The translations under genes were made by a program, and so were the position numbers. Shown here piece by piece: positions 8,265-63,512 of a stretch of 64,000 nt of DNA. This DNA is from Pyrinomonadaceae bacterium (GTDB lineage: Bacteria > Acidobacteriota > Blastocatellia > Pyrinomonadales > Pyrinomonadaceae). The stretch's first letter is position 1; the number at the start of each line of letters is the position of its first letter. Location of the stretch: the NCBI GenBank assembly GCA_035296285.1, contig DATHBF010000449.1, positions 3,182-67,181 of the forward strand. The letters run 5' to 3'. The notes below the pieces were generated by a model, which worked only from the letters and a program-made list of their open reading frames with translations, did no database searches and was not told where the DNA came from.

Positions 8265-8304
8265 CTTAAAAGCCGTGAATCGTGAATCGTGAAAGGCAGC
8301 TCTT

Positions 8305-9243
8305 CTATTTGCGATTCACGGTGCTTGTGCCCTTCACCCCCTTCAGGTCGAGGCGGAAGAGGCCGCCCTTCGTCGTCTTCTCTTCGCCGAGCGCGCCGGT
8401 GACGTAGAGCTGGTCCATGCGCGGGCCGCCGAAGGCGACGTTGCTCGTGGTCAGGTTGCCGGCCGCGTAGCTGCGCAAAAGTTTCCCCGACGGGCTTAAG
8501 ACCTGCACGCGCCGCATGCCGTAGTGCGCGACGTAGAGGTTGCCGTCGGCGTCGAGGCACATGCCGTCCGGCTCGCTGGCGATCTGCCCGTCGCCCTTCG
8601 AGGGGAGGTCGGCGAAGACTTTCATGCCCGCCACTTTGCCCGGCGAGGCGAGCATGTAGACGAGGACGCGGTTGTGATTGCTCTCGCCGACGAGCAGGGT
8701 CTTGCCGTCCGGTCTGAGGACGATGCCGTTCGGGAAGGCCAGCCCGCCGGCGACGAGATGCGTCTCGCCCCGCGCGTCAACGTAGTGGACCGTGCCGATA
8801 GGATTCTCGCGCGAAGAGCCGCCGGGGTCTGTGAAGTAGAAGCCGCCCGCGCCGTCGAGCGTCAGGTCGTTGGGCGCTCGCAAAGGCTTGCCTTCATGCT
8901 CGGAGGCCGCCTTGCCGATGACCTTCCCCGAGGCGTCGAGCCTGAGCACCGCACGCTGGCTTCCGTCGCAGACGAGGTGTGTGCCGTCGGCCAGAATCTT
9001 GTGGCCGTTCGGCGCGCCCGTCTTCGCCCACGCCTCCGCGACCCCCTCGTGTCGGACGCGGTAGATGGTGCCGTTGTAAACGTCCGAGACGTAGAGCGCG
9101 CCGTCGCGGCCGACGACGACGCCCTCGCTATAGCCGGGGACTTCGACGACCTTGACGGCCTTGACGCCGCCCTCCGGCGGCAGCCCCGCGCCCGCGTCGG
9201 CGGCGAGGATGAGTGCGAGTGCGCAGATAAGTTGTTTCATCAT
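8305..9243 (-). CDS. secreted SMP-30/gluconolactonase/LRE-like six-bladed propeller protein
   Basis: Has a signal peptide (MMKQLICALALILAADAGAG). Shows repeated propeller-blade patterns: ...GALYVSD..., ...GFYFTDP..., PNGIVL, LYVA. Confidence 0.75.
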   Translation of the reverse strand: MMKQLICALALILAADAGAGLPPEGGVKAVKVVEVPGYSEGVVVGRDGALYVSDVYNGTIYRVRHEGVAEAWAKTGAPNGHKILADGTHLVCDGSQRAVLRLDASGKVIGKAASEHEGKPLRAPNDLTLDGAGGFYFTDPGGSSRENPIGTVHYVDARGETHLVAGGLAFPNGIVLRPDGKTLLVGESNHNRVLVYMLASPGKVAGMKVFADLPSKGDGQIASEPDGMCLDADGNLYVAHYGMRRVQVLSPSGKLLRSYAAGNLTTSNVAFGGPRMDQLYVTGALGEEKTTKGGLFRLDLKGVKGTSTVNRK

Positions 9244-31425: not shown

Positions 31426-31524
31426 TGGCGGAGGCGTGTGGGAATCGAACCCACCCGCGCCTGCTCTCACAGTCGCGCTGACGGTTTTGAAGACCGCGCC
31501 GCTCACCAGAACGGATGCGCCTCC
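31426..31524 (-). tRNA. selC: tRNA-Sec (anticodon UCA)
   Basis: The reverse complement is GGAGGCGCATCCGTTCTGGTGAGCGGCGCGGTCTTCAAAACCGTCAGCGCGACTGTGAGAGCAGGCGCGGGTGGGTTCGATTCCCACACGCCTCCGCCA (99 nt). It has an extended acceptor stem. The D-stem is 6 bp (CCGTTC/GAGCGG) with a 4-nt loop (TGGT), a tRNA-Sec hallmark. The anticodon loop is CU-UCA-AA. It also has a long variable arm, a T-arm GTGGG-TTCGATT-CCCAC and an encoded CCA. The layout parallels E. coli selC. Confidence 0.85.
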
Positions 31525-37404: not shown

Positions 37405-38493
37405 TTACGGCAGGTCGGGCTTCGACAGCGGCGAGCCCTTGTCGCCGACGTAGACGTTGAGGACGGTGAAGTTCGACGGGATGCCGGTGGCGAAGGCGTG
37501 GTTGGTCACGAGCAGCGAGCCGTGGCCGTCGAAGGCGATGTTGGCCGGCGAGTCGTAGGGGAAGAACGGGCTCCCGGCGGGGTTGGCGAGCCGCCCCGTC
37601 TCCGCCCCCGAAGGGTTGAGGATGGCGATGCCCGACGCGGCCGGCGTCGCGATGGCGACGTAGAGGTTGCTCGACTTGCCGAAGGCGATGCCGTCGGGGA
37701 TGTCGCCCGGCGCGAACGCCTTGAAGACCTTGAGGTCGGACGCCTGCGGCTGCTCGGAGAGCGGCAGCGTGTAGATGTAGGGCATGCCCGTCGGGTCAAT
37801 CGAGACGACGACGAAGAGCTTCGAGCGGTCGGGGCTCAGGCGGAGGCCGTTGGCGCCGATGCCGTTGGGGACGGTGCCGAGGCGCGCGTCCTGGAAGTAG
37901 ATCTGCGGGGTGCCGCCGCCCGCGGGGACGCGCCAGATGGTCGCCTGCAAGGAGTCGGTGACGTAGGCGCTGCCGTCCTCGTCGAACGCGATGTCGTTCG
38001 GGAGCGAGGGCGCGTCGAAGAAGGTCGGCGAGCAGGGCGCGTTGTTGCCGTCGCACGCGGGCAGGTCGGGGAAGGGCGTCGAGTAAGACTCCTGCGCGCC
38101 CGAGCCGGTGTCGATGCGGTACATGCCGAGCTGGATGTTCAGGACGTAGAGGCGGCCCTGGCCGTCGAAGGCGATGCAGGAGTTGGCGTGCTCGAACTGG
38201 AGGGCCTCGCCCTGCGTCGTGTAGGTGGCTTCCGTAGCGCCGGTGTCGCGGTTGAAGGCGACGACGGTCGAGGGGCCGGTGCCGGCCGTGCCGAAGCGGG
38301 CCGGACCCGAGACGTAAACCTTATTGCCTTTGACGGCGATGCCTTCGGGGAAGCCCGGCGGCGTCGGGAACGTGGCGAGGACTTGGGCGTCGCCGTAGGG
38401 GCGGGCGTGGGAGGCGGCGTTGGTTGAGGGAACGAGCGAGGTGACGGTGGCCGCGGCCAGGAGTGCGGCTGAGGCGATCTTCTTAAGATTCAT
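37405..38493 (-). CDS. secreted SMP-30/strictosidine-synthase-like beta-propeller protein
   Basis: Start at MNLKKIASAALLAAATVTSLVPSTNA (the ATG at 38493). Shows blade-like repeats: PEGIAV.GNKVYVS, PNDIAFDEDGSAYVTD, GANGLRLSPD, PDGIAFGKSSNLYVA, PANIAFDGHGSLLVTN. Confidence 0.6.
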   Translation of the reverse strand: MNLKKIASAALLAAATVTSLVPSTNAASHARPYGDAQVLATFPTPPGFPEGIAVKGNKVYVSGPARFGTAGTGPSTVVAFNRDTGATEATYTTQGEALQFEHANSCIAFDGQGRLYVLNIQLGMYRIDTGSGAQESYSTPFPDLPACDGNNAPCSPTFFDAPSLPNDIAFDEDGSAYVTDSLQATIWRVPAGGGTPQIYFQDARLGTVPNGIGANGLRLSPDRSKLFVVVSIDPTGMPYIYTLPLSEQPQASDLKVFKAFAPGDIPDGIAFGKSSNLYVAIATPAASGIAILNPSGAETGRLANPAGSPFFPYDSPANIAFDGHGSLLVTNHAFATGIPSNFTVLNVYVGDKGSPLSKPDLP

Positions 38494-38689
38494 TTTATGA
38501 TGGCGCCTTTCTTCGGTTGGTGGCGATGGGCTCGTGCGCGCGGGTGGTCGGGGTCGGCTTGCCGCGCGCGTTAAGGAACTCTCCTCTACACGCATAGGCG
38601 CAAAGGCCCCGCGAAAGGGATCAGGGGGCGCGAAAAAAAATTTTCGGCTTGTCGCCCGCGCCCTCCGCCCTTAAACTCTGGACTCACCT

Positions 38690-39475
38690 ATGAAACTTGC
38701 GAACAGGACAGCCTTCATCACGGGCGGCGGGCGCGGCATCGGGCGCGCGGTGGCCGAGGCGTTCGCCTCGGAGGGCGCGCGCGTCTTCGTCGTGGCGCGC
38801 ACGGCCGGCGAGATCGAGCGGGCGGCCGGCGAGATTTGCGCCGGGTGCGGCGAAGGGCAGGCGGGCCACGCCGTCTGCGACGTGTCGGACCCGCGCTCGG
38901 TGGCCGACGCCTTCAAGGCGGCCCAGGGGTTCTTCGGCCGCGGCGTGGACATCCTCGTCAACAACGCCGGGGTGGCCGAGAGCTCGAAGTTCGTCGAGAC
39001 GGACAACGAGTTCTGGGAGCGCCACCTCGCGGTCAACCTCTCGGGCACGTTCTACTGCATGAGGGCGGCGCTGCCCGCCATGATCGCCAGGGGCTTCGGC
39101 CGCGTCATCAACGTCGCCTCCATCGCGGGCAAGACCGGCGCGCCCTACATCGCCGCCTACACGGCGTCGAAGCACGGCGTGCTCGGCCTGACGCGCTCGG
39201 CGGCGATGGAGGTCGCCTCGAAGGGCGTCACCGTCAACGCCGTCTGCCCCGGCTACGTGGACACGGAGATGACGGCGCGGGCCGTCGCCGGCATCACAGA
39301 GAAGACGGGGCGCACCTCCGACGAAGCCCTCGAAACCCTCAAGCGCATGAGCCCGCAGCACCGCCTCGTCACGCCCGAGGAGGTCGCGGCCGTCGCCCTG
39401 CTCCTCGCCTCCGAAGAGGGGCGCGGCATCACCGGCCAGGCCATCAACGTGGACGGCGGCTCGGTGCTCTTCTAA
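38690..39475 (+). CDS. SDR family oxidoreductase (3-hydroxyacyl-CoA dehydrogenase/FabG-like)
   Basis: TGGGRGIG cofactor motif, NNAG, and S...YxxxK (YTASKHGV). Confidence 0.85.
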   Translation: MKLANRTAFITGGGRGIGRAVAEAFASEGARVFVVARTAGEIERAAGEICAGCGEGQAGHAVCDVSDPRSVADAFKAAQGFFGRGVDILVNNAGVAESSKFVETDNEFWERHLAVNLSGTFYCMRAALPAMIARGFGRVINVASIAGKTGAPYIAAYTASKHGVLGLTRSAAMEVASKGVTVNAVCPGYVDTEMTARAVAGITEKTGRTSDEALETLKRMSPQHRLVTPEEVAAVALLLASEEGRGITGQAINVDGGSVLF

Positions 39476-39486
39476 ACTCTTCCGAC

Positions 39487-39879
39487 ATGAAAGTAATCAA
39501 CCCAGCTTCACTCGGCCGGCCCTCGGGTTACTCGAACGGGCTGCTGACGCCGCCGGGCGTGAGGGTGTTGTTCGTCGCGGGGCAGATCGGCTGGGACGAG
39601 AACCGGAGGCTCGTCGGCGAGGACTTCGTCGAGCAGTTCGACCGCGCGCTCGCGAACGTGCTGGCGGTCGTGCGGGAGGCGGGCGGCGCGCCGGGCTCAA
39701 TCGGGCGCATGACGGTCTACGTGACGGACAAGCGCGAGTACGCCGCGCGCCTCGCCGCGGTAGGAGAACGCTGGCGCGCGCTGATGGGCCGCCACTATCC
39801 GGCCATGACGCTCGTCGAAGTCAAGGCCCTGCTCGAAGACGGCGCGAAGGTCGAGATAGAGGCCACGGCCGTGCTCTGA
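39487..39879 (+). CDS. RidA/YjgF/L-PSP family enamine/imine deaminase-like protein
   Basis: Begins MKVINPASLGRPSGYSNGLLTPPGVRVLFVAGQIG...RMTVYVTD...VEVKALLEDGAKVEIEATAVL. It lies inside the longer out-of-frame track ORF 38836-39879. Confidence 0.8.
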   Translation: MKVINPASLGRPSGYSNGLLTPPGVRVLFVAGQIGWDENRRLVGEDFVEQFDRALANVLAVVREAGGAPGSIGRMTVYVTDKREYAARLAAVGERWRALMGRHYPAMTLVEVKALLEDGAKVEIEATAVL

Positions 39880-39882
39880 ATC

Positions 39883-40689
39883 ATGCTCCAACCCAAATCA
39901 TTCCTTTACGAAGTGAGCGGCGGCGTCGCGACCATCCGGCTGAACCGGCCGGAGCGCCTGAACGCGCTGACCTTCGAGGTCTACCGCGAGCTGACCGACG
40001 CCTTCGCCGCCTTGCAGACGGAGAAGGACGTGCGCGCCGTCGTCATCACGGGCGAGGGCCGCGCCTTCTGCTCGGGCGGCGACGTGCGCGACATCATCGG
40101 CCAGCTGCACGGGCGCGACATCGAGGGGCTGCTCGCCTTCACGCGCCTGACGTGCGAGCTGGTGCGCAACATCCGCCGCCTGCGCAAGCCCGTCGTCGCC
40201 AGCCTCAACGGCACGACGGCCGGCGCGGGCGCCTGCATCGCCCTCGCCTCCGATTTGAGAATCGCCAGCAACGACGCGCGCATCGCCTTCCTCTTCGTCA
40301 AGGTCGGGCTCTCCGGCGCCGACATGGGCGCCGCCCACCTGCTGCCGCGCCTCGTCGGGCTCTCGAAGGCGACCGAGCTGCTCTACACCGGCGACTTCAT
40401 CACGGCCGAGGAGGCGCACCGCGTCGGCCTCTACAACCGCGTCGTCGCGCCCGAGGACCTGGAGAAGGAGACGCGCTCTCTGGCCGAGCAATTGGCGGCC
40501 GGCCCCTCGTTCGCGCTCGGCGTGACGAAGGAGATGCTTGAGCGCGAGATGGACCTCTCGCTCGACGCCGCGCTCGAACTCGAAGCGCAGGCGCAAGCCT
40601 TCTGCATGCAGCACCCGGACTACCGCGAAGCCTACGAGGCGTTCATGGAGAAGCGCGCGCCGCGCTTCCGGCACGGAGGAGAAGTATGA
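39883..40689 (+). CDS. enoyl-CoA hydratase/isomerase family protein
   Basis: Contains VATIRLNRPERLNAL...GEGRAFCSGGDV...NGTTAGAGACIALASDLRIA. Confidence 0.85.
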   Translation: MLQPKSFLYEVSGGVATIRLNRPERLNALTFEVYRELTDAFAALQTEKDVRAVVITGEGRAFCSGGDVRDIIGQLHGRDIEGLLAFTRLTCELVRNIRRLRKPVVASLNGTTAGAGACIALASDLRIASNDARIAFLFVKVGLSGADMGAAHLLPRLVGLSKATELLYTGDFITAEEAHRVGLYNRVVAPEDLEKETRSLAEQLAAGPSFALGVTKEMLEREMDLSLDAALELEAQAQAFCMQHPDYREAYEAFMEKRAPRFRHGGEV

Positions 40690-41975
40690 GCCGTCTGACC
40701 CGCACGCTCGCCGCCCTGTCGCTCGCCGCCTGTCTCGCCGCCGCGGCCTCCGCGCAGACGCCCGCCGACGGGACGCTGCTCGAACAGAAGACCTTCGACG
40801 GCTGGGACTACAACGGGCTCGCGCCCTGGCAGCGGGCCGTCTACGGCCGCGAGACGTTCGACGCCCTGCGCAACTCGGCCGACGTGGAGCTGCTTAAGAT
40901 CAGGTACGCGAGCGGCGGCCTGAGCGTCGCCGGCTTCATCGCCAAGCCGAAGAAGACGGCGGGAAGGCTGCCCGTCATCATCTTCAACCGCGGCGGCTTA
41001 GACGAAGGCGTCATCGGGATGTCGAACTTCAACTACATCCACGAGATGTTCCGCTACGCCTCCGAGGGCTTCGTCGTCGTCGCCTCGCAGTACCGCGGCG
41101 TGGACGGCGCGGGCGGGCGCGACGAGGTGGGCGGCGCCGACCTCGCCGACGTTTTCAACATCATGAAGCTCGCCCGCTCGCTCGACTACGTTGACGCCGA
41201 CCGCCTCTTCATGTGGGGCTACTCGCGCGGCGGGCTGATGACGCTGCAAGCCCTCCGCGACGGCGCGAAGCCGCGCGCCGTCGTCCTCGTCGGCGCCCCG
41301 ACCGACTACGGCGCGCTGCTGCCCGGCTTCGAGAGCTTCTTCCGCGCGGCCTTCCCCGACTACGACCGCCGCAAGGAGGAGCACCTGCGCAACCGCACGC
41401 CCCTCAACTGGGTCGAGAAGATAGACGCGCCCGTGCTCATCCTCCACGGCGGCGACGACAACCTCACGCCCGTCCAGTCGCTCAACCTCGCGCGCCGGAT
41501 GGAAGAGTCGGGCAAGCTCTACGAGCTGGTCATCTATGCCGGCGACAACCACCCCGTCCTCTTCAACCGCGAGGACCGCCTGCGCCGCACCGTTGACTGG
41601 TTCAAGAACCCGCGCAAGATGTCTGCGGCCTCGGCCGTCCGCAAGACGGTCGAGACGCACGGCGTCGAGGCCGCGCTCAAACAGTACCGGGAGCTGCAAA
41701 GGACGCAGGCCGACCGCTACCAGTTCGGCGAGGCCGACCTCAACCGCTTCGGCTACTCGCTGCTCGGCGAGGGGCGCGTCAAGGAGGCCGTCGAAGTCTT
41801 CAAGCTCAACGCCGAGCTGTTCCCGCAGAGCTTCAACACCTACGACAGTCTCGCCGAGGCTTACGCCGCCGCGGGCGAGCGCGAGCTGGCGATGAAGAAC
41901 TACAGGAAGTCGCTTGAGCTGAATCCGCAGAACGCGAACGCCGCGGACAGGCTGAAGGAGTTGGAAAAGAAGTAG
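40686..41975 (+). CDS. secreted S9-type alpha/beta hydrolase (prolyl oligopeptidase/DPP-like) with C-terminal TPR
   Basis: Signal peptide MSRLTRTLAALSLAACLAAAASAQ. Nucleophile elbow MWGYSRGG. ...ILHGGDDNLTP contains the acid residue region. The C-terminus (NAELFPQSFNTYDSLAEAYAAAGERELAMKNYRKSLELNPQN) is TPR-like. Confidence 0.7.
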   Translation: MSRLTRTLAALSLAACLAAAASAQTPADGTLLEQKTFDGWDYNGLAPWQRAVYGRETFDALRNSADVELLKIRYASGGLSVAGFIAKPKKTAGRLPVIIFNRGGLDEGVIGMSNFNYIHEMFRYASEGFVVVASQYRGVDGAGGRDEVGGADLADVFNIMKLARSLDYVDADRLFMWGYSRGGLMTLQALRDGAKPRAVVLVGAPTDYGALLPGFESFFRAAFPDYDRRKEEHLRNRTPLNWVEKIDAPVLILHGGDDNLTPVQSLNLARRMEESGKLYELVIYAGDNHPVLFNREDRLRRTVDWFKNPRKMSAASAVRKTVETHGVEAALKQYRELQRTQADRYQFGEADLNRFGYSLLGEGRVKEAVEVFKLNAELFPQSFNTYDSLAEAYAAAGERELAMKNYRKSLELNPQNANAADRLKELEKK

Positions 41976-42599
41976 ATGATGAGAGGAACGCTGGCCCTCG
42001 TCCTCCTCTTCGCCGTAACGGCTGGCGCGCAGGAGTTCGAAAGGGCGCGGGAGGCGCCGGGCGGCGGCCCCGCGGCCTTCGAGTTCGAGCTGTCGGGCTA
42101 CTCCTACCACGTCGCGTCGAACGGCAACGGGCGGAGGGCGAAGGGCGGGCGCGCGCGCCCCTTCAACCTGCGGCTCGAAGGCAGGGACTCCATCACGCGC
42201 CTCCGCTTCTCGAAGTTCAAGGACGACCTGCTGCTGCTCTGCGAAGTCTCGGACGGCGAGAGGCAAGGCGCCTTCGCCGCGCGGCTCGAACAGCCCTCGA
42301 TGCGCGCCCGCTGGAAGCTCGCCGTCCCCTCGTCTTCAATCGGGCCGGCGCTGCGCGAAGGCCAGCGCCTCTACCTCACGGGCCGCGGCTTCGTCGCCCT
42401 GCTCGACGTGGACCAGGGCGCATACGTCTGGCAACACGTTGACCTCCACGGCCGCCGCGGCCCCGGCTCCTTTGAAGCCTTCGAGCGGCCCGAGCGCGCC
42501 GGCCGCGAGGTTCTGTTCCGCGAGCGGCCGGTCTACAATGGCCCGGCGCGGACCGCCGTCGTGGACAACAAGACCGGCAGGCTCGTCCGCGTCGAGTAA
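41976..42599 (+). CDS. secreted hypothetical protein
   Basis: Signal peptide MMRGTLALVLLFAVTAGAQ. No recognisable family. The start abuts the upstream stop (TAGATG). Confidence 0.45.
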   Translation: MMRGTLALVLLFAVTAGAQEFERAREAPGGGPAAFEFELSGYSYHVASNGNGRRAKGGRARPFNLRLEGRDSITRLRFSKFKDDLLLLCEVSDGERQGAFAARLEQPSMRARWKLAVPSSSIGPALREGQRLYLTGRGFVALLDVDQGAYVWQHVDLHGRRGPGSFEAFERPERAGREVLFRERPVYNGPARTAVVDNKTGRLVRVE

Positions 42600-42614
42600 G
42601 GCGACCTTCATACA

Positions 42615-43787
42615 ATGCAGCGAGACACGTTCATCGAAGAGACGCCCTTCTTCACGGAAGAGCACGCGCGGCTGGCGGCCGGCGTCGCGGACTTCGCCGC
42701 GCGCGAGGTCGAGCCGCGCGCGGCCGACGGCGAAGACGGCGACACCGACGCCGCCTTCCGCGAGCTTCTGAGCCTGCTCGCGCAGGCGGACCTTCTGCGC
42801 TTCGCGGTGCCGCCGGCCGACGGCTCGCCGCTCGACGCGCGCTCTCTCTGTGTCGTGCGCGAGGCGCTGGCCTTCTCTTCCCCTCTGGCCGACCTCGCCT
42901 TCGTCATGCAGGGCCTCGGCACCTACGCCATCAGCCTCGCCGCGCACGAGCACGTCCGCGACTTCTGGCTCGGCCGGGCTCGCTCGGGCAAGTCCGTCGC
43001 CGCCTTCGCGCTCACCGAGCCCGAGGCCGGCTCCGACGTTTCCGGCATCCAGACGACGGCCGCGCGCGACGGCGACTCCTTCCGCATCCGCGGCCGCAAG
43101 TGCTTCATCTCGAACGCGGGCGTCGCCGACTTCTACACGGTCTTCGCGCGCACGGGCGAGCGCGAGGGCGGGCGGCCCGAGATTTCGGCCTTCATTGTCG
43201 GCGCGCGGATGCCCGGCTTCCGCCTGCTGGCGCGCACGCGCCTCGTCGCCGCCCACCCCATCGGCGAGATAGAGTTCGACGACGTGCGCGTCCCCGCCGA
43301 GGACATGCTCGGCGCCGAGGGCGACGGCTTCCGGCTGGCGATGATGACGATGGACATGTTCCGCGCCAGCGTCGGCGCCGCCGCCTGCGGGATGGCGCGG
43401 CGCGCGCTCTTCGAGTCGATCAACCACGCCCGCCGCCGCCGCCAGTTCGGCGTCACGCTCGCCATGCAGCAGCTCATCCAGGAGAAGCTGGCGACGATGC
43501 AGACGGAGCTGGACGCCGCGCGCCTTCTGGTCTACCGCGCCGCGCACCTCAAGGACTCGGCCGCGCCGGGGCCGCACCTGACGCGCGCCGCGAGCGAGGC
43601 CAAGCTCTTCGCCACCGAGGCCGCGCAGCGCATCGTGGACGAGGCCGTGCAGATTCACGGCGGCTACGGCCTCGTCCACGGCGCCGTCGTCGAGCGCCTC
43701 TACCGCGACGTGAGGGCGCTTCGCATCTACGAGGGCACCTCCGAAATCCAGAAGCTCGTCATCGCCCGCGAGATGCTGAAAGAATAG
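42615..43787 (+). CDS. acyl-CoA dehydrogenase
   Basis: Contains FALTEPEAGSDVSGIQTTA...FISNAGVADFY..., and a C-terminal ...RIYEGTSEIQKLVIAREML with the catalytic Glu region. Confidence 0.85.
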   Translation: MQRDTFIEETPFFTEEHARLAAGVADFAAREVEPRAADGEDGDTDAAFRELLSLLAQADLLRFAVPPADGSPLDARSLCVVREALAFSSPLADLAFVMQGLGTYAISLAAHEHVRDFWLGRARSGKSVAAFALTEPEAGSDVSGIQTTAARDGDSFRIRGRKCFISNAGVADFYTVFARTGEREGGRPEISAFIVGARMPGFRLLARTRLVAAHPIGEIEFDDVRVPAEDMLGAEGDGFRLAMMTMDMFRASVGAAACGMARRALFESINHARRRRQFGVTLAMQQLIQEKLATMQTELDAARLLVYRAAHLKDSAAPGPHLTRAASEAKLFATEAAQRIVDEAVQIHGGYGLVHGAVVERLYRDVRALRIYEGTSEIQKLVIAREMLKE

Positions 43788-43807
43788 GCTGGCCTCGGAC
43801 TTCTCAT

Positions 43808-44944
43808 ATGCGCGTTAACATCATCGGCGGGGGGCCGGCGGGGCTCTACTTCGCGCTGCTCCTGAAGAAGCACGACCCGGCGCACGAGGTCGCGGTCTAC
43901 GAGCGGAACCCGCCGGACGCGACCTTCGGCTGGGGCGTCGTCTTTTCGGGGCGCACGCTCTCGAATCTGCGCGAGGCCGACGCCGACTCGCACCGCGCGC
44001 TCTCGGAGAGCTTCGAGACGTGGGACAACGTGGACGTGCTCCTGCGCGAGAGCCGCGTCACGGTGCGCGGCAACCACTTCTCCGCCATCGCGCGCATCCG
44101 GCTCCTGAACATCCTCCATGAACGCTGCGCGCGCCTCGGCGTCCGCCTTCTCTTCCGCGAGGAGGCGGCCGACTTCGGCAAGCTCTCGGCCGACTGCGAC
44201 CTGCTCGTCGGGGCCGACGGCGTCGGCAGTCTCGTGCGCCAGCACTACGCGGAAGAGTTAGGGCCGGAGCTGGGCGAGGGGCGCAACAGGTACATCTGGT
44301 ACGGCACGCGCCGCCTCTTCCACGGGCTGACGCTCACCTTCCGCGAGTCGGAGGCGGGCGTCTTCGCCGCGCACTCATACAAGTTCAGCCCCGACACGAG
44401 CACCTTCATCGTCGAGTGCGACGAAGAGACGTGGGGGCGTTCGGGATTCTCCGCGATGTCCGACGCCGAGACGCGCGCGCACCTCGCCGGGGTCTTCCAA
44501 AAGGACCTCGACGGCCACGAGCTTCTGTCGAACAACTCGCGCTGGATAAATTTTCTACTCGTGAGGAATCGGCGCTGGAGCGCGGGCAACGTCGTGCTGC
44601 TCGGCGACGCGCTGCACACCGCCCACTTCTCCATCGGCTCGGGCACGAAGCTCGCCATGGAAGACTCCATCGCCCTCTTCCGCCTCTTCGCCGCCGGCCT
44701 CGACGTGCCCTCGGCCCTCGACGAGTTCGAGCGCACGCGCCGGCCCGTCATCGAAGAGTACCAGCAGGCCGCGCACGAGAGCCGCCTCTGGTTCGAGCGC
44801 GCCGCCGACCACACACACCTCGCGCCCCTGCCCTTCGCCTACAGCCTCATGACCCGCAGCAAGCGCCTCGACCACGAGAGCCTGCGCCGCCGCGACCCCG
44901 ACTTCGTCGCCGCCTACGAGAAGGAAATAGCCGGTAAAGAGTAA
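43808..44944 (+). CDS. FAD-dependent aromatic-ring (acyl-CoA) monooxygenase, equivalent to the N-terminal half of 2-aminobenzoyl-CoA monooxygenase/reductase or salicylyl-CoA 5-hydroxylase
   Basis: MRVNIIGGGPAGLYFALLLKK gives a GxGxxG FAD fold. Also ...LVGADGVGSLVR and ...VLLGDALHTAHFSIGSGTKLAMEDS. The ATG is at 43808 inside the longer track ORF. The partner OYE-like reductase is encoded convergently at 45413-46900. Confidence 0.75.
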   Translation: MRVNIIGGGPAGLYFALLLKKHDPAHEVAVYERNPPDATFGWGVVFSGRTLSNLREADADSHRALSESFETWDNVDVLLRESRVTVRGNHFSAIARIRLLNILHERCARLGVRLLFREEAADFGKLSADCDLLVGADGVGSLVRQHYAEELGPELGEGRNRYIWYGTRRLFHGLTLTFRESEAGVFAAHSYKFSPDTSTFIVECDEETWGRSGFSAMSDAETRAHLAGVFQKDLDGHELLSNNSRWINFLLVRNRRWSAGNVVLLGDALHTAHFSIGSGTKLAMEDSIALFRLFAAGLDVPSALDEFERTRRPVIEEYQQAAHESRLWFERAADHTHLAPLPFAYSLMTRSKRLDHESLRRRDPDFVAAYEKEIAGKE

Positions 44945-44967
44945 TCGGCAGCCGCCACAGAAACTAA

Positions 44968-45010
44968 ATCGGGGGCCGACGCGAGGATGTCGCCCCCGAT
45001 TTCTTTATCT
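44968..45010 (+). terminator. rho-independent terminator
   Basis: ATCGGGGGC-cgacgcgaggatgtc-GCCCCCGAT followed by TTCTTTATCT. It lies 24 nt after the stop at 44944. Confidence 0.7.
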
Positions 45011-45048
45011 GCGGCGCGAAAACGTATTCCCACACCGGCAAAATTAAT

Positions 45049-45384
45049 TACTGCAAGGCGAAAATCTATTGCCGCATAAATTTAACCTATCACTTCGGTG
45101 TGAAATATAAACGCTACGAATGCGAAACGGACCACTACAACGTGAAAACGGACCGATGTATAAATAAATTCTATTACTTCAGGGTTGAATATAATTACTA
45201 CAAATGTAAATCCTATTAGTACAAGGTGAAAGCGGACTGGTACTAGGTGAGAATCTGTTAATTCACTGTCTCAGAGTACTGTTGTAAGGTGAGAATCTAT
45301 TAATTCGCCGTCTTAGAGTACTGCTGCAAGGTGCAATCCTCCGTACGCAGCCGCAAAACTTCCGTCGGCGACGTGAAAACGCCC
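45049..45384. repeat. AT-rich array of 16 consecutive degenerate 21-nt units (consensus about YRCTRCAAGGTGAAAAYCKRY), including two near-identical 42-bp units
   Basis: Cutting the sequence every 21 nt from 45049 places GTGAAA, GCGAAA, GTGAGA, GTGCAA or a close variant at unit columns 10-15 in at least 10 of the 16 units. Units 2, 6, 11 and 13 are a distinct subtype and lack it. Register is kept without any indel. Positions 45247-45288 and 45289-45330 form a 42-bp tandem duplicate. The region is visibly AT-rich compared with its flanks. Confidence 0.8.
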
Positions 45385-45412
45385 GTCGTCAACCGCGGCG
45401 AGGAACGTTCCT

Positions 45413-46900
<1,488 letters not shown>

Positions 46901-46936
46901 GATTTCGCGCGGCGAGTTTACCAAAAGAAGTCGCCA

Positions 46937-46992
46937 GTTATCAGTTGCCGGCCGCCGGCAAAGACGAAAACTGACGGCCGACACCTGATAAC
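46937..46992. promoter_or_regulatory. nested inverted repeats in the divergent promoter region (GTTATCAG...CTGATAAC enclosing TTGCCGG-CCG-CCGGCAA)
   Basis: Read directly from the sequence between the divergent starts at 46900 (-) and 47070 (+). Confidence 0.3.
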
Positions 46993-47069
46993 CTGCCACC
47001 TGTCACAATTCCTAAACCCTTCGCGGGCGCGCTTCGTACGGTGGAGTTGTGCCGGGGGTTTTAAGGCTG

Positions 47070-47519
47070 ATGGGTAAGTGGGAACACTTTTTCGGGCGTT
47101 TGTTCGGGGGCGCTTTCGGCGGCCGGGGTCACGGCCTGCCGGCGGACGCTTCCGCGCCGCGCCGCGCGGGCGCCGAGTCCTTCGCCAGCCGCTTCGAGCG
47201 AGCCGGCGTCCGCCTCTTCAAGAACAACTGCCTCGTCCTCCCCTGGGTCCGCGAGCGTGAAGAGATTGAAGCCTCCGTGCAAGGCGCGCGGGCCGATCTG
47301 CTGCGCTCGTGGAACGTCTACCGCGACCGCGTCGGCTCGAAGCGCACGGCCGCGCTGGCCGAGTCGGACTGGCGCCGCGCCGTCGGCGCCTTCCACCGCC
47401 AGACCGCCGACCTCAACCGCCTCATCGCCGCCTACAACCTCAAAGCCCCCTCCGCCGCCTTCCGCAAATGGCCCCTCCACGCCGACCGCGAACTCGAAAG
47501 CGTCACCCGCGACGCCTGA
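47070..47519 (+). CDS. DUF1992 (DnaJC28-like C-terminal domain) protein
   Basis: FKNNCLVLPWVREREEIE...ADLNRLIAAYNLKAPSAAFRKWPL resembles the DUF1992 pattern. This is from memory. The ATG at 47070 is preferred over the GTG at 47049. Confidence 0.5.
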   Translation: MGKWEHFFGRLFGGAFGGRGHGLPADASAPRRAGAESFASRFERAGVRLFKNNCLVLPWVREREEIEASVQGARADLLRSWNVYRDRVGSKRTAALAESDWRRAVGAFHRQTADLNRLIAAYNLKAPSAAFRKWPLHADRELESVTRDA

Positions 47520-47607
47520 ACTCCTCCGCCACAACCACGTCGGCACGGGTGGCCTTCCAAGTTGCCCGTAGATATACTGGCGCTTAACGTTTCAGGAGGA
47601 GACTTTT

Positions 47608-48804
<1,197 letters not shown>

Positions 48805-48806
48805 AC

Positions 48807-49667
48807 ATGACGAATGAATACGGCGGCAAAACCCCGCTCTCCTACAACAAGTACCTGCGCGTGCGCGACCTGATCGCGTTGCAGGACTGTCTGTCGGAGC
48901 CCGCGCACCACGACGAGTTGCTCTTCATCACCATCCACCAGGCTTACGAGCTCTGGTTCAAGCAGGTCTTGCACGAGATAGACTTCGCCGCGGCGGCCGT
49001 CGCCGAGGACCGCGCGCCCGCGGCCGCCCGCGCCCTCGCGCGCGTCGTCGAGATCGAGAAGATGCTCGTCACGCAGATTCACATCCTTGAGACGATGACG
49101 CCCATCAACTTCCTCGGCTTCCGCGACCAGTTGAACCCGGCGAGCGGCTTCCAGTCCATGCAGTTCCGCGAGATCGAGTTCGCCTCGGGCCTGAAGGACG
49201 AGGGCATCCTCCGCGCCTTCCGCGACGACGAGTTCGCCTCCGAGCGCCTGCGCGCGCGCTTCGACGCGCCGACCCTCGGCGAAGCCTTCTTCTCGTACCT
49301 CACGCGCCGCGGCCTCGACGCCCCGGCCGACGACCCCTCGCAGAGTGAGGAGGAAAGGCGACGCGCCTACGACCGCCGCGTCCTCGCCGCCCTCGAAGTC
49401 CTGACCCACTTCGAGACGCGCTACGAGGAGTTCCAACTCGCCGAATCGCTCATCGCGCACGACGAATACTTCTCGCTCTGGCGCCACCACCACGTCAAGA
49501 TGGTCGAGCGGATGCTCGGCACCAAGAAGGGCACGGGCGGCTCCGAGGGCGTCGGCTACCTGCGGACCACGCTCGACAAGAAATTCTTCCCCGAACTCTG
49601 GGAGGCGCGCACACACCTCGACACCACGCACGGCCACGCCGGCTGCCCTTTCGCCGGCCACAGCTAA
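48807..49667 (+). CDS. kynA: tryptophan 2,3-dioxygenase
   Basis: SYNKYLRVRDLIALQDCLSEPAHHDELLFITIHQAYELWFKQVLHEID is the canonical bacterial TDO N-terminal region. Confidence 0.85.
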   Translation: MTNEYGGKTPLSYNKYLRVRDLIALQDCLSEPAHHDELLFITIHQAYELWFKQVLHEIDFAAAAVAEDRAPAAARALARVVEIEKMLVTQIHILETMTPINFLGFRDQLNPASGFQSMQFREIEFASGLKDEGILRAFRDDEFASERLRARFDAPTLGEAFFSYLTRRGLDAPADDPSQSEEERRRAYDRRVLAALEVLTHFETRYEEFQLAESLIAHDEYFSLWRHHHVKMVERMLGTKKGTGGSEGVGYLRTTLDKKFFPELWEARTHLDTTHGHAGCPFAGHS

Positions 49668-49681
49668 ACTCTCAGCCGCCT

Positions 49682-51229
49682 ATGTCCCACGTCGAATTTC
49701 CGGAACGATTCAACATGGCGGACTACTTCCTCTACCACAACGTGGAGGAGGGGCGCGAAGCCAAGGTCTGCCTCTACTACGAGGACGAGCGTTACACCTA
49801 CGGCGACGCCGTGCGTCTGTCGAACCGCGCCGGAGGCGCCCTGCGCGAGTCGGGCCTGAGAGTCGAAGACCGCGTGCTGTTGGTGCTGCCCGACTGCCCG
49901 GAGTTCGTCTGGACGTGGTTCGGCGCGGCGCGGGCTGGCGGCGTCATCACGATGGTCAACCCGCTGCTGCCGGCGGACGACTACCGCTACTACCTCGAAT
50001 ACACGCGCGCCCGCGTCGCCGTCGTCCACGAGTCGCTGCTTGAGAACTTCACGCGGGCGGCCGAAGGCGCGCGGCATCTACAGAGCGTGCTGGTCGTCGG
50101 CGGCGAGCGCGGCCCGTTCCATTCCTTCGCCGAAGTCTTGAACGCGCAAGCAGACGAGCTGACGCCCGCCGACACGCACCGCGACGACCCGGCCATCTGG
50201 CTCTTCACCTCCGGCTCGACCGGCCACCCGAAGGGCGCCGTCCACCTCCAGCACGACCTGCCCTTCAACACGGAGTGCTACGCCAAGCGCGTCCTCGGCG
50301 TGAACGAAAATGATTTGACCGTCTCCGTCCCCAAGCTCTTCTTCGGCTACGCGACGGGCACGAACCTGCTCTTCCCCTTCTCCGTCGGCGGCGCCACCGC
50401 GCTCTTCTCTGAGAGGTCAACGCCCGACAAACTCTTCGAGGTCATCGAACGCTACCGCCCCACCGTCCTCACCAGCGTGCCGACGATGATCGGCGCCATG
50501 CTCAACGCCGAGAACTCGGCCGCGCGCGACCTGTCCTCCCTGCGGATGTGTCTCTCGGCCGGCGAGGCGCTGCCCGTCGAGTTGTACCGCCGCTGGGTCG
50601 AGACCTTCGGCGTCGAGATTCTCGACGGCATCGGCTCGGCCGAGATGTTCCACATCTACATCACGAACCGGCCCGGCGACGTGAAGCCCGGCAGCCTCGG
50701 CCGCATCGTCGAGGGCTACGAGGCCGAGGTAGTTGACGCCGACGGCCGCGCGCTCCCCGCGGGCGAGATGGGCACGCTCCGCGTCAAGGGCGACTCGGCC
50801 GCGCTCTGCTACTGGCAGGCGCACGAGAAGTCGAAGCAGACGTTTGCCGGCGACTGGTGCACGACCGGCGACCAGTTCCACGTAGACGCCGACGGCTATT
50901 ACTGGTATCACGGCCGCACCGACGACATGCTCAAGGTCTCCGGCATCTACGTCGCGCCGGCCGAGATCGAGAACTGCCTGCTCCGCCACGAGGCGGTCGC
51001 CGAGGCCGCAATCGTCGGCCACGACGACGGCTCCGGCCTCGTCAAGCCCAAAGCCTTCCTCGTCCTCCGCGAAGGCCACGCCCCCGGCGAGGACCTCGCG
51101 CGCCAGATTCAGGACTTCGTCAAGTCGCGCCTCGCCCCCTACAAGTACCCGCGCCGGGTCGAGTTCGTCGCCTCGCTCCCGAAGAACGACCGCGGCAAGA
51201 TAGACCGGAAGGCGCTCAAGACGCGGTGA
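49682..51229 (+). CDS. benzoate-CoA ligase family enzyme (probable 2-aminobenzoate-CoA ligase)
   Basis: Contains FPERFNMADYFL...WLFTSGSTGHPKGAVHLQHDL...GEMGTLRVKGDS...GDQFHVDADGYYWYHGRTDDMLKVSG...PKNDRGKIDR. These are ANL motifs with a benzoate-CoA-ligase-type N-terminus. Confidence 0.8.
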   Translation: MSHVEFPERFNMADYFLYHNVEEGREAKVCLYYEDERYTYGDAVRLSNRAGGALRESGLRVEDRVLLVLPDCPEFVWTWFGAARAGGVITMVNPLLPADDYRYYLEYTRARVAVVHESLLENFTRAAEGARHLQSVLVVGGERGPFHSFAEVLNAQADELTPADTHRDDPAIWLFTSGSTGHPKGAVHLQHDLPFNTECYAKRVLGVNENDLTVSVPKLFFGYATGTNLLFPFSVGGATALFSERSTPDKLFEVIERYRPTVLTSVPTMIGAMLNAENSAARDLSSLRMCLSAGEALPVELYRRWVETFGVEILDGIGSAEMFHIYITNRPGDVKPGSLGRIVEGYEAEVVDADGRALPAGEMGTLRVKGDSAALCYWQAHEKSKQTFAGDWCTTGDQFHVDADGYYWYHGRTDDMLKVSGIYVAPAEIENCLLRHEAVAEAAIVGHDDGSGLVKPKAFLVLREGHAPGEDLARQIQDFVKSRLAPYKYPRRVEFVASLPKNDRGKIDRKALKTR

Positions 51230-57626: not shown

Positions 57627-57887
57627 CTAGAACAGCCCCAGCAAGCTTTGCATCAAATTAAACGTGACCTCTAACCCGTCAATCGAGGTTTGTGAGGACG
57701 TGCCAGTCACACCAGTCTGCATTTCACCTGGAGCGCCGTTCTGGATATCACCGTCGCCGGTGACGCCGTTCTGTATTACTCCTTGAGTCGCGCTCGTCGT
57801 TCCTGTGACCCCGTTTTGCATTAGTCCGGCGTAGGCAGAGCAGGACAGAGTCAGAATCAACATCGCGGTGCTAATAGCTTTGCGCAT
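57627..57887 (-). CDS. small secreted repeat peptide (86 aa), hypothetical
   Basis: Signal peptide MRKAISTAMLILTLSCSAYA. The mature part has four degenerate repeats (LMQNGVTGTTSATQG / VIQNGVTGDGD / IQNGAPGE / MQTGVTGTSSQTS) and a hydrophobic tail FNLMQSLLGLF. GAGAGGA lies upstream of the ATG. The gene sits in a low-GC island. Confidence 0.6.
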   Translation of the reverse strand: MRKAISTAMLILTLSCSAYAGLMQNGVTGTTSATQGVIQNGVTGDGDIQNGAPGEMQTGVTGTSSQTSIDGLEVTFNLMQSLLGLF

Positions 57888-57955
57888 TTTCTTTTCCTCT
57901 CATTTTGGATGGGTTAGTAGCCATGCTCGCCGCATCTCGTTGAACTGCGGTGACT

Positions 57956-57984
57956 TTGATACTGATGCAAGAGTCTTGCATCAA
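57956..57984 (-). promoter_or_regulatory. candidate sigma70-type promoter for the small peptide gene, with palindrome copy 2 in its spacer
   Basis: The minus strand reads TTGATG-17 nt-TATCAA. The 17-nt spacer contains TGCAAGACTCTTGCA. The predicted 5' UTR is about 60 nt. Confidence 0.4.
57966..57980. promoter_or_regulatory. 15-bp perfect palindrome TGCAAGA-G-TCTTGCA (copy 2)
   Basis: Ends 3 nt before the ATG (57984) of the TPR-HTH-REC regulator. It lies inside the spacer of the candidate promoter for the divergent peptide gene. Confidence 0.6.
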
Positions 57985-59891
57985 TGAAGAAAGGCAACCC
58001 TCACATGAATTTGGTCAGCGACAAGTTGAGATTATTAGAAACCCCTAACCTTACAACTGACGAGCGCACCTTGCTTCGCTGCCAAGTCGCCGCGGACTTA
58101 ATTTACGCGGGGCAGTATGAGGCAGCAAAGGACGCTTTAGGGGACCTGTGGCATGAAATCGGCAACCGCCCTGACCTCAAAGGGCGGTCAATTCTTACCA
58201 CCGCTGAGATTCTGTTGCAATGTGGAGTGTTAAGTGGCTGGCTCGGTAGCGTCCGCAATATCTCTCAGGCTCAAGAACAAGCGAAGAACCTACTCTCAGA
58301 AGCACTCCGACTCTTCGAGGCTCAAGGCTGTCGGTCTAAAGTCTCAGAAGTTCAGTATGAACTCGGCATATGTTACTGGCGTGTTGGTGCCTATGATGAA
58401 GCGCGCATCATTTTACGTGAGGCTCTCCAAGAACTTGGGGAGAACAATATCGAACTTGAAGCAAAAATCTTAATTCGACGAACACTTGTCGAGATTAGCA
58501 CCAACAGAGATCACGAGGCGTGGGAAATTCTCGAAGAGGCCAAATCTTCCTTTGAAACTTGCAGTGATGCGGTTAAGGGAAGGTGGCACGGGCAAAAAGG
58601 TCTAGTCCTATTCAAACTAGCAACTATAGAAAATAGGGCTGATTACTTCGACAGAGCCATCATTGAATATACGGCGGCTATTTACCATTATGAGCGGGCG
58701 AAGCATGAGAGGTACTGCGGCAATAATTTAAACAACTTAGCCTTCCTCCTGTACAAATTAAACCGTTTTAAGGAAGCGCATGAGAATTTAGACCGGGCTT
58801 ATAAGATTTTTGCGAGGCTGAAAGACCCCGGCAATGTGGCGCAGGTGAATGAGACGCGGGCGCGGGCGTTGGTGGCGGAGGGGAGGTTTGAGGAGGCTGC
58901 GCGGGTGGTTGAGCGCGTCGTGAGGGTTTTGGAGCAGGGCGGGGAGAACGGGTTGCTGGCGGACGCTTTGGCGGTGCAGGGGGTGGCGCTGGCGAGGTTG
59001 GGGCAGCAGGAAGGTTCGATGCGGGCGCTGCGGCGGGCGGTGAGCGTGGCGACGGATTCGGGCGCGCACTCGAACGCGGGGCAGGCGGCGCTGACTTTGA
59101 TTGAGGAGCATGCGGAGAGGATGGCGGACGCGGAATTGTATTCCGTCTACCGCAGGGCCGACCGCATGTTGAAGGAGACGCAGGACGCGGAGGACGTGGC
59201 GCGGTTGAGGGCGTGCGCGCGGGTCGTCGTGCGGCGGATGCGTGGGGCGAAGTTGAGTGACGAGGATTTCAGCCTGCCGCGCGTGGTCAGAGAGTACGAG
59301 GCGCGCTTTATCGAGCAGGCGCTGGACCTCGAAGAGGGGAGCGTGACGCGGGCGGCGAAGCGGCTCGGCGTCAAGCACCAGACGCTCGCGCACCTGCTTG
59401 AGACGCGCCACCGGCACCTGTTGCAGAAGAGGCGCCCGGCCGTCAGCCGCCGCCGGAGCATCATCACGGGGCCTCGCGTCATCACCCCTTACAAGAATGT
59501 GAAGGTCGCGCGGCCCGTCTCGATCCTGCTGGTCGAAGACAACGAGATGGTGGCGGAGCCGGTCAGGGACTGCCTTGAGTACGAGGGCTGGCGCGTCGAG
59601 ACGTGCGCCGATGGCGGCGAGGCGCTGCGGCTCATCGAGGGGCCGGAGCACTTCGATTTGCTGCTGCTCGACAACGAGCTGCCGGGGGTGACCGGCCTGG
59701 AACTGATACGCCGCGCGCGCTCACTCGCGCACCGGAGGCGGACGCCTATCGCCATGTTCTCGGGCTGCGACGTGGCCGTCGAGGCGCGCAGCGCCGGCGC
59801 CGACGCCTTCCTCAGAAAGCCGGACGACATGCCCGTGCTCGTCAACGTCATCGGCGGCCTCCTCGCCGAAGAGGCCGCGGACGAGGATTAA
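57984..59891 (+). CDS. cytoplasmic regulator: about 430-aa TPR-like helical-repeat domain + Fis-type HTH + C-terminal receiver (REC) domain
   Basis: The N-terminal helical repeats have TPR-like spacing (YELGICYWRVGAYDEARIILREAL, NNLAFLLYKLNRFKEAHENLDRAYKIF, ...). HTH_8-like segment FIEQALDLEEGSVTRAAKRLGVKHQTLAHLL. REC segment VSILLVEDNEMVAEPVRDCLEYEGWRVETCADGGEALRLI...DLLLLDNELPGVTGLELIR. No signal peptide or TM helix. Confidence 0.75.
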   Translation: MKKGNPHMNLVSDKLRLLETPNLTTDERTLLRCQVAADLIYAGQYEAAKDALGDLWHEIGNRPDLKGRSILTTAEILLQCGVLSGWLGSVRNISQAQEQAKNLLSEALRLFEAQGCRSKVSEVQYELGICYWRVGAYDEARIILREALQELGENNIELEAKILIRRTLVEISTNRDHEAWEILEEAKSSFETCSDAVKGRWHGQKGLVLFKLATIENRADYFDRAIIEYTAAIYHYERAKHERYCGNNLNNLAFLLYKLNRFKEAHENLDRAYKIFARLKDPGNVAQVNETRARALVAEGRFEEAARVVERVVRVLEQGGENGLLADALAVQGVALARLGQQEGSMRALRRAVSVATDSGAHSNAGQAALTLIEEHAERMADAELYSVYRRADRMLKETQDAEDVARLRACARVVVRRMRGAKLSDEDFSLPRVVREYEARFIEQALDLEEGSVTRAAKRLGVKHQTLAHLLETRHRHLLQKRRPAVSRRRSIITGPRVITPYKNVKVARPVSILLVEDNEMVAEPVRDCLEYEGWRVETCADGGEALRLIEGPEHFDLLLLDNELPGVTGLELIRRARSLAHRRRTPIAMFSGCDVAVEARSAGADAFLRKPDDMPVLVNVIGGLLAEEAADED

Positions 59892-63423: not shown

Positions 63424-63512
63424 CAAAGGGGTGCCGGGTGCCGGGTTCCAGGTGCCGGGTAGGAGCAGACTGTCCTCACCCGGCACCTGGAACCCGGCAC
63501 CCGGCACCTTTG
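63424..63512 (-). terminator. very long (about 34 bp) near-perfect hairpin directly after the GGDEF gene stop; terminator or REP-like element
   Basis: The arms are CAAAGGGGTGCCGGGTGCCGGGTTCCAGGTGCCGGGT and ACCCGGCACCTGGAACCCGGCACCCGGCACCTTTG, around the loop aggagcagactgtcctc. Each arm contains three GGTGCCGGG-like direct repeats. On the minus strand the stem is followed by TTTGTTGACTTT. Confidence 0.6.

Follow-up and report, generated by a model that had tools for sequence, protein, structure and literature searches.

A phased 21-nt tandem array between convergent monooxygenase and reductase genes of a soil Pyrinomonadaceae bacterium is probably a lineage-restricted degenerate minisatellite

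Introduction

Plasmid iterons and centromeres of the F sopC type consist of 17-22-bp or 43-bp direct repeats set in helical phase, while the short tandemly repeated repetitive (STRR) sequences of cyanobacteria are heptamers. STRR fingerprinting has been used in published work (PMC5088731). Tandem repeats of the minisatellite class are listed among the small variable segments of bacterial genomes (PMC2884548), and the "polymorph" small variable segments that lie between conserved genes were defined on cultivated species, for example E. coli and S. aureus (Touzain et al. 2010, PMC2884548).

Here we describe a degenerate tandem array of 21-nt units between two convergent genes of an uncultured soil member of the Pyrinomonadaceae (Acidobacteriota), located within a 64-kb stretch of DNA that was analysed as a whole (the window). 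Like bacterial minisatellites or VNTRs (MIRU-type loci, MLVA typing), the array is made of intergenic head-to-tail units of tens of bases, with degenerate copies, whole-unit copy change between relatives and no required function. It departs from typical VNTR typing loci in that its units are far more diverged (about 45-55% positional identity), in its 21/42/84 hierarchy and in a GC content some 30 points under that of the genome, and it differs from the dispersed MIRU family in being confined to a single locus in all DNA searched. The likeness to polymorph segments is that close strains carry unrelated sequences between the same backbone genes; here, however, the host is an uncultured bacterium, the genes are a convergent pair, and the variable content is mostly tandem-repeat hairpins. 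Iterons and sopC share with the array direct repeats of about 21 or 42 bp, strict register and AT-rich DNA, whereas the repeats of the array are poorly conserved, sit in a chromosomal catabolic cluster and are dispensed with by sister strains. Cyanobacterial STRR sequences resemble the tandem 7-9-nt repeats found in the same spacer of relatives and in two other spacers of the window, but the array itself is no heptamer array, and the local heptamer arrays come as inverted, hairpin-forming pairs.

Results and discussion

Anatomy and periodicity of the array

Autocorrelation, column composition and a table of units define the array as 18 head-to-tail 21-nt units at positions 45007-45384. Across this interval sequence identity is 0.45 at lag 21 (z 8.4), 0.54 at lag 42 (z 12.3), 0.39 at lag 63 (z 5.4) and 0.53 at lag 84 (z 11.4), with none of 300 dinucleotide-preserving shuffles as high as the observed values (mononucleotide shuffles were also run). 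Restricting the calculation to 45007-45246, which leaves out a near-identical 42-bp duplication, still gave z values of 7.1, 7.6 and 9.7 at lags 21, 42 and 84, with a lag-84 identity of 0.59. No identity signal was present in the array at lag 7 (z 0.4) or lag 14 (z 0.3), and no comparable periodicity was found in either coding flank.

A preliminary description of this DNA had reported strict 21-nt phasing without an indel, and both the rows of 21, which stay in register from 45007 to 45405, and the autocorrelation, which confirms the 21/42-nt period, agree with it. The 16 units that it counted from 45049 are indeed in register, but the register begins two units earlier, at 45007. Its placement of GTGAAA, or a one-mismatch variant, at unit columns 10-15 applies to eight of those 16 units, with the motif shifted by one column in one more, and fails for the others; because the motif occupies only half of the cited units, 42 nt is a stronger period than 21. 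The higher-order structure consists of three 84-nt blocks of four 21-nt subtypes apiece (45007-45258), recognised from the lag-84 identity and from repeat families spaced 84 nt apart, and of a 42-nt duplication with 2.1 copies and 87% matching (45245-45333), which corresponds to the pair of near-identical adjacent 42-bp units described earlier and is seen both by TRF and as a 42-nt gap in a related genome (L002, below). These 42-nt copies are all that TRF reports, because the remaining units are too diverged. From the unit table and the L002 alignment, the array ends in a fading, GC-rich last unit (the 19th) and a short linker to the reductase stop codon (45385-45412).

The consensus features of the unit are T4, C6, A7, G10, A13-A15 and A20; A15 is present in 18/18 units and C6 in 16/18, and the information content of most columns is below 1 bit. 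At periods 21 and 10.5 the AA-dinucleotide power lies above that of all 500 shuffles, and it is highest at period 7. The contrast in composition with the flanks, also noted earlier, is pronounced: GC is 0.42 across the array and 0.39 in its core (45049-45342) against 0.68 for the window, with local GC falling from about 0.70 to 0.37, and nowhere else in the 64 kb is the sequence strongly periodic or equally AT-rich. As the identical sequence is carried by a JGI soil contig (L001) and a diverged copy by an independent MAG (L002), the array is not an assembly artefact. A second AT-rich island of the window (57776-58875, GC down to 0.41) takes in the upstream region and 5' part of an ORF of 635 aa, the product of which combines TPR repeats with a Fis-type HTH_8 domain and a response-regulator receiver domain. 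This island may be recently acquired.

Genomic setting

The array lies in a convergent intergenic region measured at 468 bp (44945-45412; roughly 470 bp in the preliminary description). To its left, on the plus strand, is a 378-aa FAD monooxygenase of the anthraniloyl-CoA (2-aminobenzoyl-CoA) monooxygenase type (43808-44944; Pfam FAD_binding_3), the start of which was picked from the sequence and the exact protein of which occurs in public collections, from Pyrinomonadaceae, as FAD-dependent or anthraniloyl-CoA monooxygenase. To its right, on the minus strand, is the reductase half, an Old-Yellow-Enzyme-type NADH:flavin oxidoreductase (45413-46897; Pfam Oxidored_FMN, translation) that has full-length tblastn matches in relatives and is also called as a gene on L001. 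The setting between the convergent halves of a split monooxygenase/reductase had thus been read correctly, as had the presence of a terminator, previously placed at 44968-45010. A GC-rich hairpin, preceded by an A-run and followed by TTTCTTTAT, occupies 44966-45012; its 11-nt arms (44966-44976 and 44992-45002) enclose a 15-nt loop, and the inverted repeat is kept in L002 and has a homologue in a further relative, L261. It is likely a bidirectional intrinsic terminator that parts the monooxygenase from the array, and inspection of the sequence shows a better T-run behind the hairpin on the plus strand than on the minus strand. The array therefore lies in the reductase 3' region, between the stop codon of that gene and the hairpin, and the monooxygenase lies beyond. 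Apart from this hairpin, the only inverted repeat found is one weak 11-nt pair that reaches into the monooxygenase gene.

The surrounding region (37405-51229) encodes, by Pfam, tryptophan 2,3-dioxygenase, kynureninase, an AMP-forming ligase, the split monooxygenase and reductase, an acyl-CoA dehydrogenase, an enoyl-CoA hydratase and an SDR, and looks like a complete route from tryptophan through anthranilate to 2-aminobenzoyl-CoA. All Pfam assignments between 37.4 and 51.2 kb are of hydratase, dehydrogenase, hydrolase, monooxygenase, reductase, kynureninase, dioxygenase and ligase types, and three ORFs in this interval gave no Pfam match. Two overlapping opposite-strand ORFs of about 156-161 aa (47049-47546), which lie in the 710 bp separating the divergent reductase and kynureninase genes, have no Pfam match. 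Elsewhere in the window, a selenocysteine tRNA gene on the minus strand (31430-31524; Rfam tRNA-Sec, 71 bits) indicates selenoprotein synthesis in this Pyrinomonadaceae genome.

The same spacer in relatives

The convergent monooxygenase/reductase pair is kept across about 20 Blastocatellia loci, and the spacer between the two genes ranges from 10 to about 1500 bp with unrelated content, which makes this slot hypervariable. Close relatives were reached through protein clusters; a metagenome protein-pattern scan gave no close relative among the matches listed. Comparison of the equivalent spacer, which the preliminary description had proposed, found the array in L002, a relic of it in L261 and none in L264 or L265. 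The last two are the closest relatives, with flanking-gene nucleotide identities to the window of about 97% (L264) and about 95-96% (L265) and monooxygenase 4-fold distances of 0.05 and 0.08. In both, homology ends within the last codons of the two genes, the flanking genes are intact, and the spacer between the stop codons is an unrelated hairpin of tandem GTGAATC or CACAGAGG units. The orthologous array is retained at a 4-fold distance of 0.16 (L002), a homologous hairpin and a short array relic are found at 0.29 (L261), and at 0.33 (L003) the spacer holds only a 91-bp GC-rich hairpin.

Within the array, the alignment of L002 with the window contains only gaps of exactly 21, 21 and 42 nt. 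The 42-nt duplication is absent from L002 and was therefore gained in, or lost after, the split of the two lineages. Over 15 orthologous units, 39 of 315 sites differ (12.4%), compared with 16% and 13% of the 4-fold degenerate sites of the two flanking genes. These substitutions are scattered over nearly all columns, and the lower count in core columns 10-15 (7/90, against 32/225 elsewhere) is, by eye, not apparently significant. Read from L002 to the window, 20 differences are of the GC-to-AT type and 12 of the AT-to-GC type, as raw and unpolarised counts. The hairpin of L261 is 83% identical to that of the window over 41 nt and is followed by a relic of three to four units, three of which score above the 95th percentile of shuffle maxima, two of these lying exactly 21 nt apart. 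With a comparative base of two full arrays (window and L002) and this one relic, weak constraint on composition, phasing or a short motif may exist.

Further along L261 (3270-3642), the relic is succeeded by AT-rich DNA and by a minus-strand sequence that looks, by eye, like the C terminus of an IS630-type transposase, so that the reductase is displaced in this genome. In L002, the reductase stop codon lies five codons earlier than in the window (RWED*; 7610-7625).

A near-neutral minisatellite as the probable explanation

Taken together, the array is, in our judgement and with moderate confidence, a lineage-restricted degenerate minisatellite (VNTR) made by slippage in a hypervariable convergent spacer, and it probably has no sequence-specific function. 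The preliminary description had offered a decayed foreign repeat-protein gene, a phased protein-binding array and an ncRNA locus; these three candidates omit the near-neutral minisatellite, to which the data point. The array has 18 head-to-tail units of 21 nt, inside the roughly 10-100-nt unit size of minisatellites, and shows whole-unit copy change relative to L002, and it fits the bacterial VNTRs and the polymorph small variable segments (PMC2884548). The observed periodicity, whole-unit indels, near-synonymous divergence and absence from the closest relatives all argue for this reading, and coding, RNA-structure and dispersal signals are absent.

The mechanism can be pictured as follows. 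Replication slippage or unequal recombination, of which slippage is most likely the generating mechanism, would have copied a 21-nt segment beside the terminator head to tail. The young array would then have been re-duplicated as 42-nt and 84-nt blocks, the copies of which drifted apart. Whole units would be gained and lost, the sequence evolving at a roughly neutral rate, and close relatives would have lost or replaced the array with the flanking genes unharmed. The simplest history compatible with the sequences is an old hairpin-plus-array module in which units were gained and lost and which was deleted or replaced in some sublineages; the array is therefore dispensable. It is probably transcribed passively, as the AU-rich 3' tail of a reductase mRNA that ends at the hairpin. 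Its AT-richness may be attributed to the amplification of an AT-rich, terminator-proximal seed together with the general AT-ward bias of bacterial mutation, to which DNA free of constraint would be exposed.

Several observations stand against the minisatellite reading. The module has been kept to a 4-fold distance of about 0.29 (L261), which is long for useless DNA under bacterial deletion bias; none of the other non-coding stretches of the window comes close to the AT content of the array; A15 and C6 recur in 18/18 and 16/18 units; and core columns 10-15 are somewhat less substituted, by eye not to an apparently significant degree. As it stands, the array carries little biological weight. It is a clean case of a long-lived 21/42/84 minisatellite in an uncultured soil Acidobacterium and could be used as a strain marker for this Pyrinomonadaceae lineage, and the monooxygenase/reductase spacer is a hot spot in which closely related strains carry unrelated inserts.

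Possible phased protein binding

Among the candidates put forward earlier, phased protein binding survives as a reading, weakened by the loss of the array in L264 and L265, its synonymous-rate divergence and its position at gene 3' ends. A GTGAAA-type motif recurring every two helical turns in an AT-rich island would form a DNA landing pad that recruits a regulator or nucleoid-associated protein to one face of the DNA, possibly to insulate the convergent transcription units from each other or to organise the topology of the locus; we consider this unlikely. In its favour is the exact 21-bp phasing, with A15 invariant and C6 near-invariant, but slippage yields whole-unit indels anyway, and the motif is found in about half of the units. 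The AA-dinucleotide power at 21 and 10.5, above every one of the shuffles, also favours this reading. The power peaks at period 7, however; A-rich patches would then follow one another at steps of about 120 degrees around the helix instead of lining one face, which would speak against coherent intrinsic bending. Persistence of the module in L002, and as a relic in L261, counts in favour, as does the lowest GC in a 0.68-GC window; against this, the array is missing from L264 and L265 despite the same intact flanking genes, and its divergence is close to the synonymous rate. The array also lies at the 3' ends of both genes and has no promoter match, and no regulator is encoded among the Pfam-scanned ORFs between 37.4 and 51.2 kb.

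A possible element acting as RNA

A second alternative, which we regard as quite unlikely, places the function at the RNA level. Here the reductase mRNA would carry the minus-strand sequence as a long, AU-rich 3' UTR, or a small RNA derived from the 3' end would contain it and stop at the hairpin, and its single-stranded repeat motifs would bind an RNA-binding protein in a sponge-like manner or tune mRNA decay. In the window, L002 and L261 alike, the array is found on the side of the hairpin that faces the reductase, and the reductase transcript must for that reason cross it before terminating; on the other hand, the plus strand has a better T-run behind the hairpin than the minus strand. Little structure is predicted for the RNA, a trait shared with sponge or Hfq-type targets, and its folding z scores of -1.4 (minus strand) and -1.7 (plus strand), which include the terminator hairpin, give no thermodynamic signal. 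No Rfam 15 family matched the array at the gathering threshold or even at E<=10. These results disfavour the ncRNA locus proposed in the preliminary description, and the near-neutral divergence and dispensability in close relatives speak against any RNA-level element. An independent transcript driven by its own promoter was rejected, as a scan for sigma-70-like sites, the promoter type to which it was limited, found no match inside the array.

A further reading, to which we give a very low probability, is that the hairpin and the 21-mers together form a functional, clade-specific scaffold, either as single-face DNA or as unstructured RNA in the reductase 3' UTR, for a protein that would recognise T-C-A...G..AAA. 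Composition and phasing, not exact sequence, would then have held the module to a 4-fold distance of at least 0.29, and the module might be linked to the process that builds tandem-repeat hairpins at other Pyrinomonadaceae gene ends. Should the array prove to be bound by a protein or to work as an RNA scaffold, its unusual simplicity as a phased element would make it easy to dissect.

A possible coding relic or nascent ORF

Least probable of the alternatives, and very doubtful in our view, is that the 21-nt period reflects seven-codon heptads, either of a decayed foreign repeat-protein gene or of a de novo Cys/Tyr/Lys-rich small peptide. As described earlier, one plus-strand frame is open for 83 codons (44968-45216) and then meets in-frame TAG, TAG, TAA and TAA stops, and this frame has only a single stop across the array in L002. 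However, any repeat whose founder unit is stop-free stays open: by our estimate, the chance that one 21-nt unit of this composition is stop-free in a given frame is about 0.6. The founder unit passes its frame on to the whole repeat, and no weight can be given to the frame being open. An ATG is absent from the frame in both the window and L002, in line with the preliminary description, whereas the GTG that it gave as the only canonical start, at 45098, is displaced, the first in-frame GTG being at 45100. In L261, a 54-codon ORF in the same frame, with an ATG in the hairpin loop, is called as a gene; the identical JGI contig L001, by contrast, carries no gene call here, and the plus-strand frame runs antisense into the reductase gene.

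Database searches gave no support for a coding origin. The 70-aa open part of the plus-strand frame had 0 matches among 1.84 billion cluster representatives, and the 83-aa frame shared no word triplet with any of 5.8 billion indexed proteins, both of these large databases having been queried with the plus-strand frame only; five frames of the array had no Pfam match. In the minus-strand frames, stop codons occur at conserved positions. Of the substitutions that separate the window from L002, 8, 16 and 15 affect plus-frame codon positions 1, 2 and 3, many of the position-2 changes swapping Cys, Tyr and Phe, and no frame on either strand shows a coding-like substitution pattern, although the total of 39 substitutions gives limited power. 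The decayed repeat-protein gene suggested earlier is thus disfavoured, there being no homologue in the databases searched, no start codon, stops in every frame and no coding-type substitutions.

That genuine heptad genes can occupy the slot is seen in the complete chromosome OY970256.1 (L042), where a coiled-coil gene that is a 21-nt repeat at the DNA level lies in the corresponding spacer. This small minus-strand protein with ARLDSIE-type heptad repeats (about 8100-8490) is part of a 1.5-kb insert that also includes an ORF resembling, by eye, an XRE-type HTH protein. Descent of the array from a gene of this type was rejected: the unit has no meaningful similarity and the insert carries other, unrelated genes, so the shared slot and strand are treated as a coincidence.

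Known repeat classes and mobile DNA

The array does not belong to any dispersed element that we could find. An nhmmer profile of the 42-mers, run on the 64-kb window and on 80 genome, 80 metagenome and 99 viral loci, detected no second copy. A REP/MITE-type family is rejected on the same ground, with no copy outside the locus in the window and about 260 fetched loci, and also because there is no palindromic unit and there are no terminal inverted repeats, the inverted repeats being the terminator hairpin and the weak 11-nt pair only. The preliminary description had staked its view on three points, and on each the outcome was in its favour: the period is significant, and neither an intact homologous ORF nor copies elsewhere were found in the loci searched. 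Foreign plasmid or phage DNA is likewise rejected, as blastn against plasmid and phage collections returned no match to the array and a degenerate 17-mer search of IMG/VR returned single, chance-like matches and no array.

Four structural comparisons were dismissed as well. In a CRISPR array conserved repeats would alternate with unique spacers, whereas here all 21-nt units belong to a single degenerate family, in which even the stretches that would count as spacers recur; an iteron origin or partition centromere is at odds with the lack of rep or par genes among the Pfam-scanned neighbours and with A15 being the only invariant position; an STRR-like heptamer array does not agree with the flat identity at lags 7 and 14 (z 0.4 and 0.3), the 7-nt harmonic being confined to A-richness; and derivation from GTGAATC heptamers, as present in L264 and at 8274-8293 of the window, is not borne out by the 10 of 21 positions that, counted by hand, agree with three heptamers, nor by any lag-7 identity.

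Tandem-repeat hairpins at gene ends

Hairpins in which both arms are tandem 7-9-nt repeats in inverted orientation were observed at two other gene ends of the window, with (CGTGAAT)n units at 8274-8325 and (GGGTGCC)4.6 facing (CACCCGG)4.6 at 63429-63508. The same type of hairpin occupies the monooxygenase/reductase spacers of L004, L007, L014, L021, L022, L264, L265 and L266, where the units are AAAGGCA, GCAGTAA, GAAATGA, GCAGAAG, CACAGAGG, CAGTAGC and GTGAATC. These family-wide gene-end hairpins may be a worthier target than the array itself. Their repeat unit changes by lineage, and some of the repeats enter the last codons of genes. Outside this family, in an Anaerolineae MAG (L026, 9076-9160), a gene close to the monooxygenase homologue has a long (TTTTGA)n microsatellite downstream of it.
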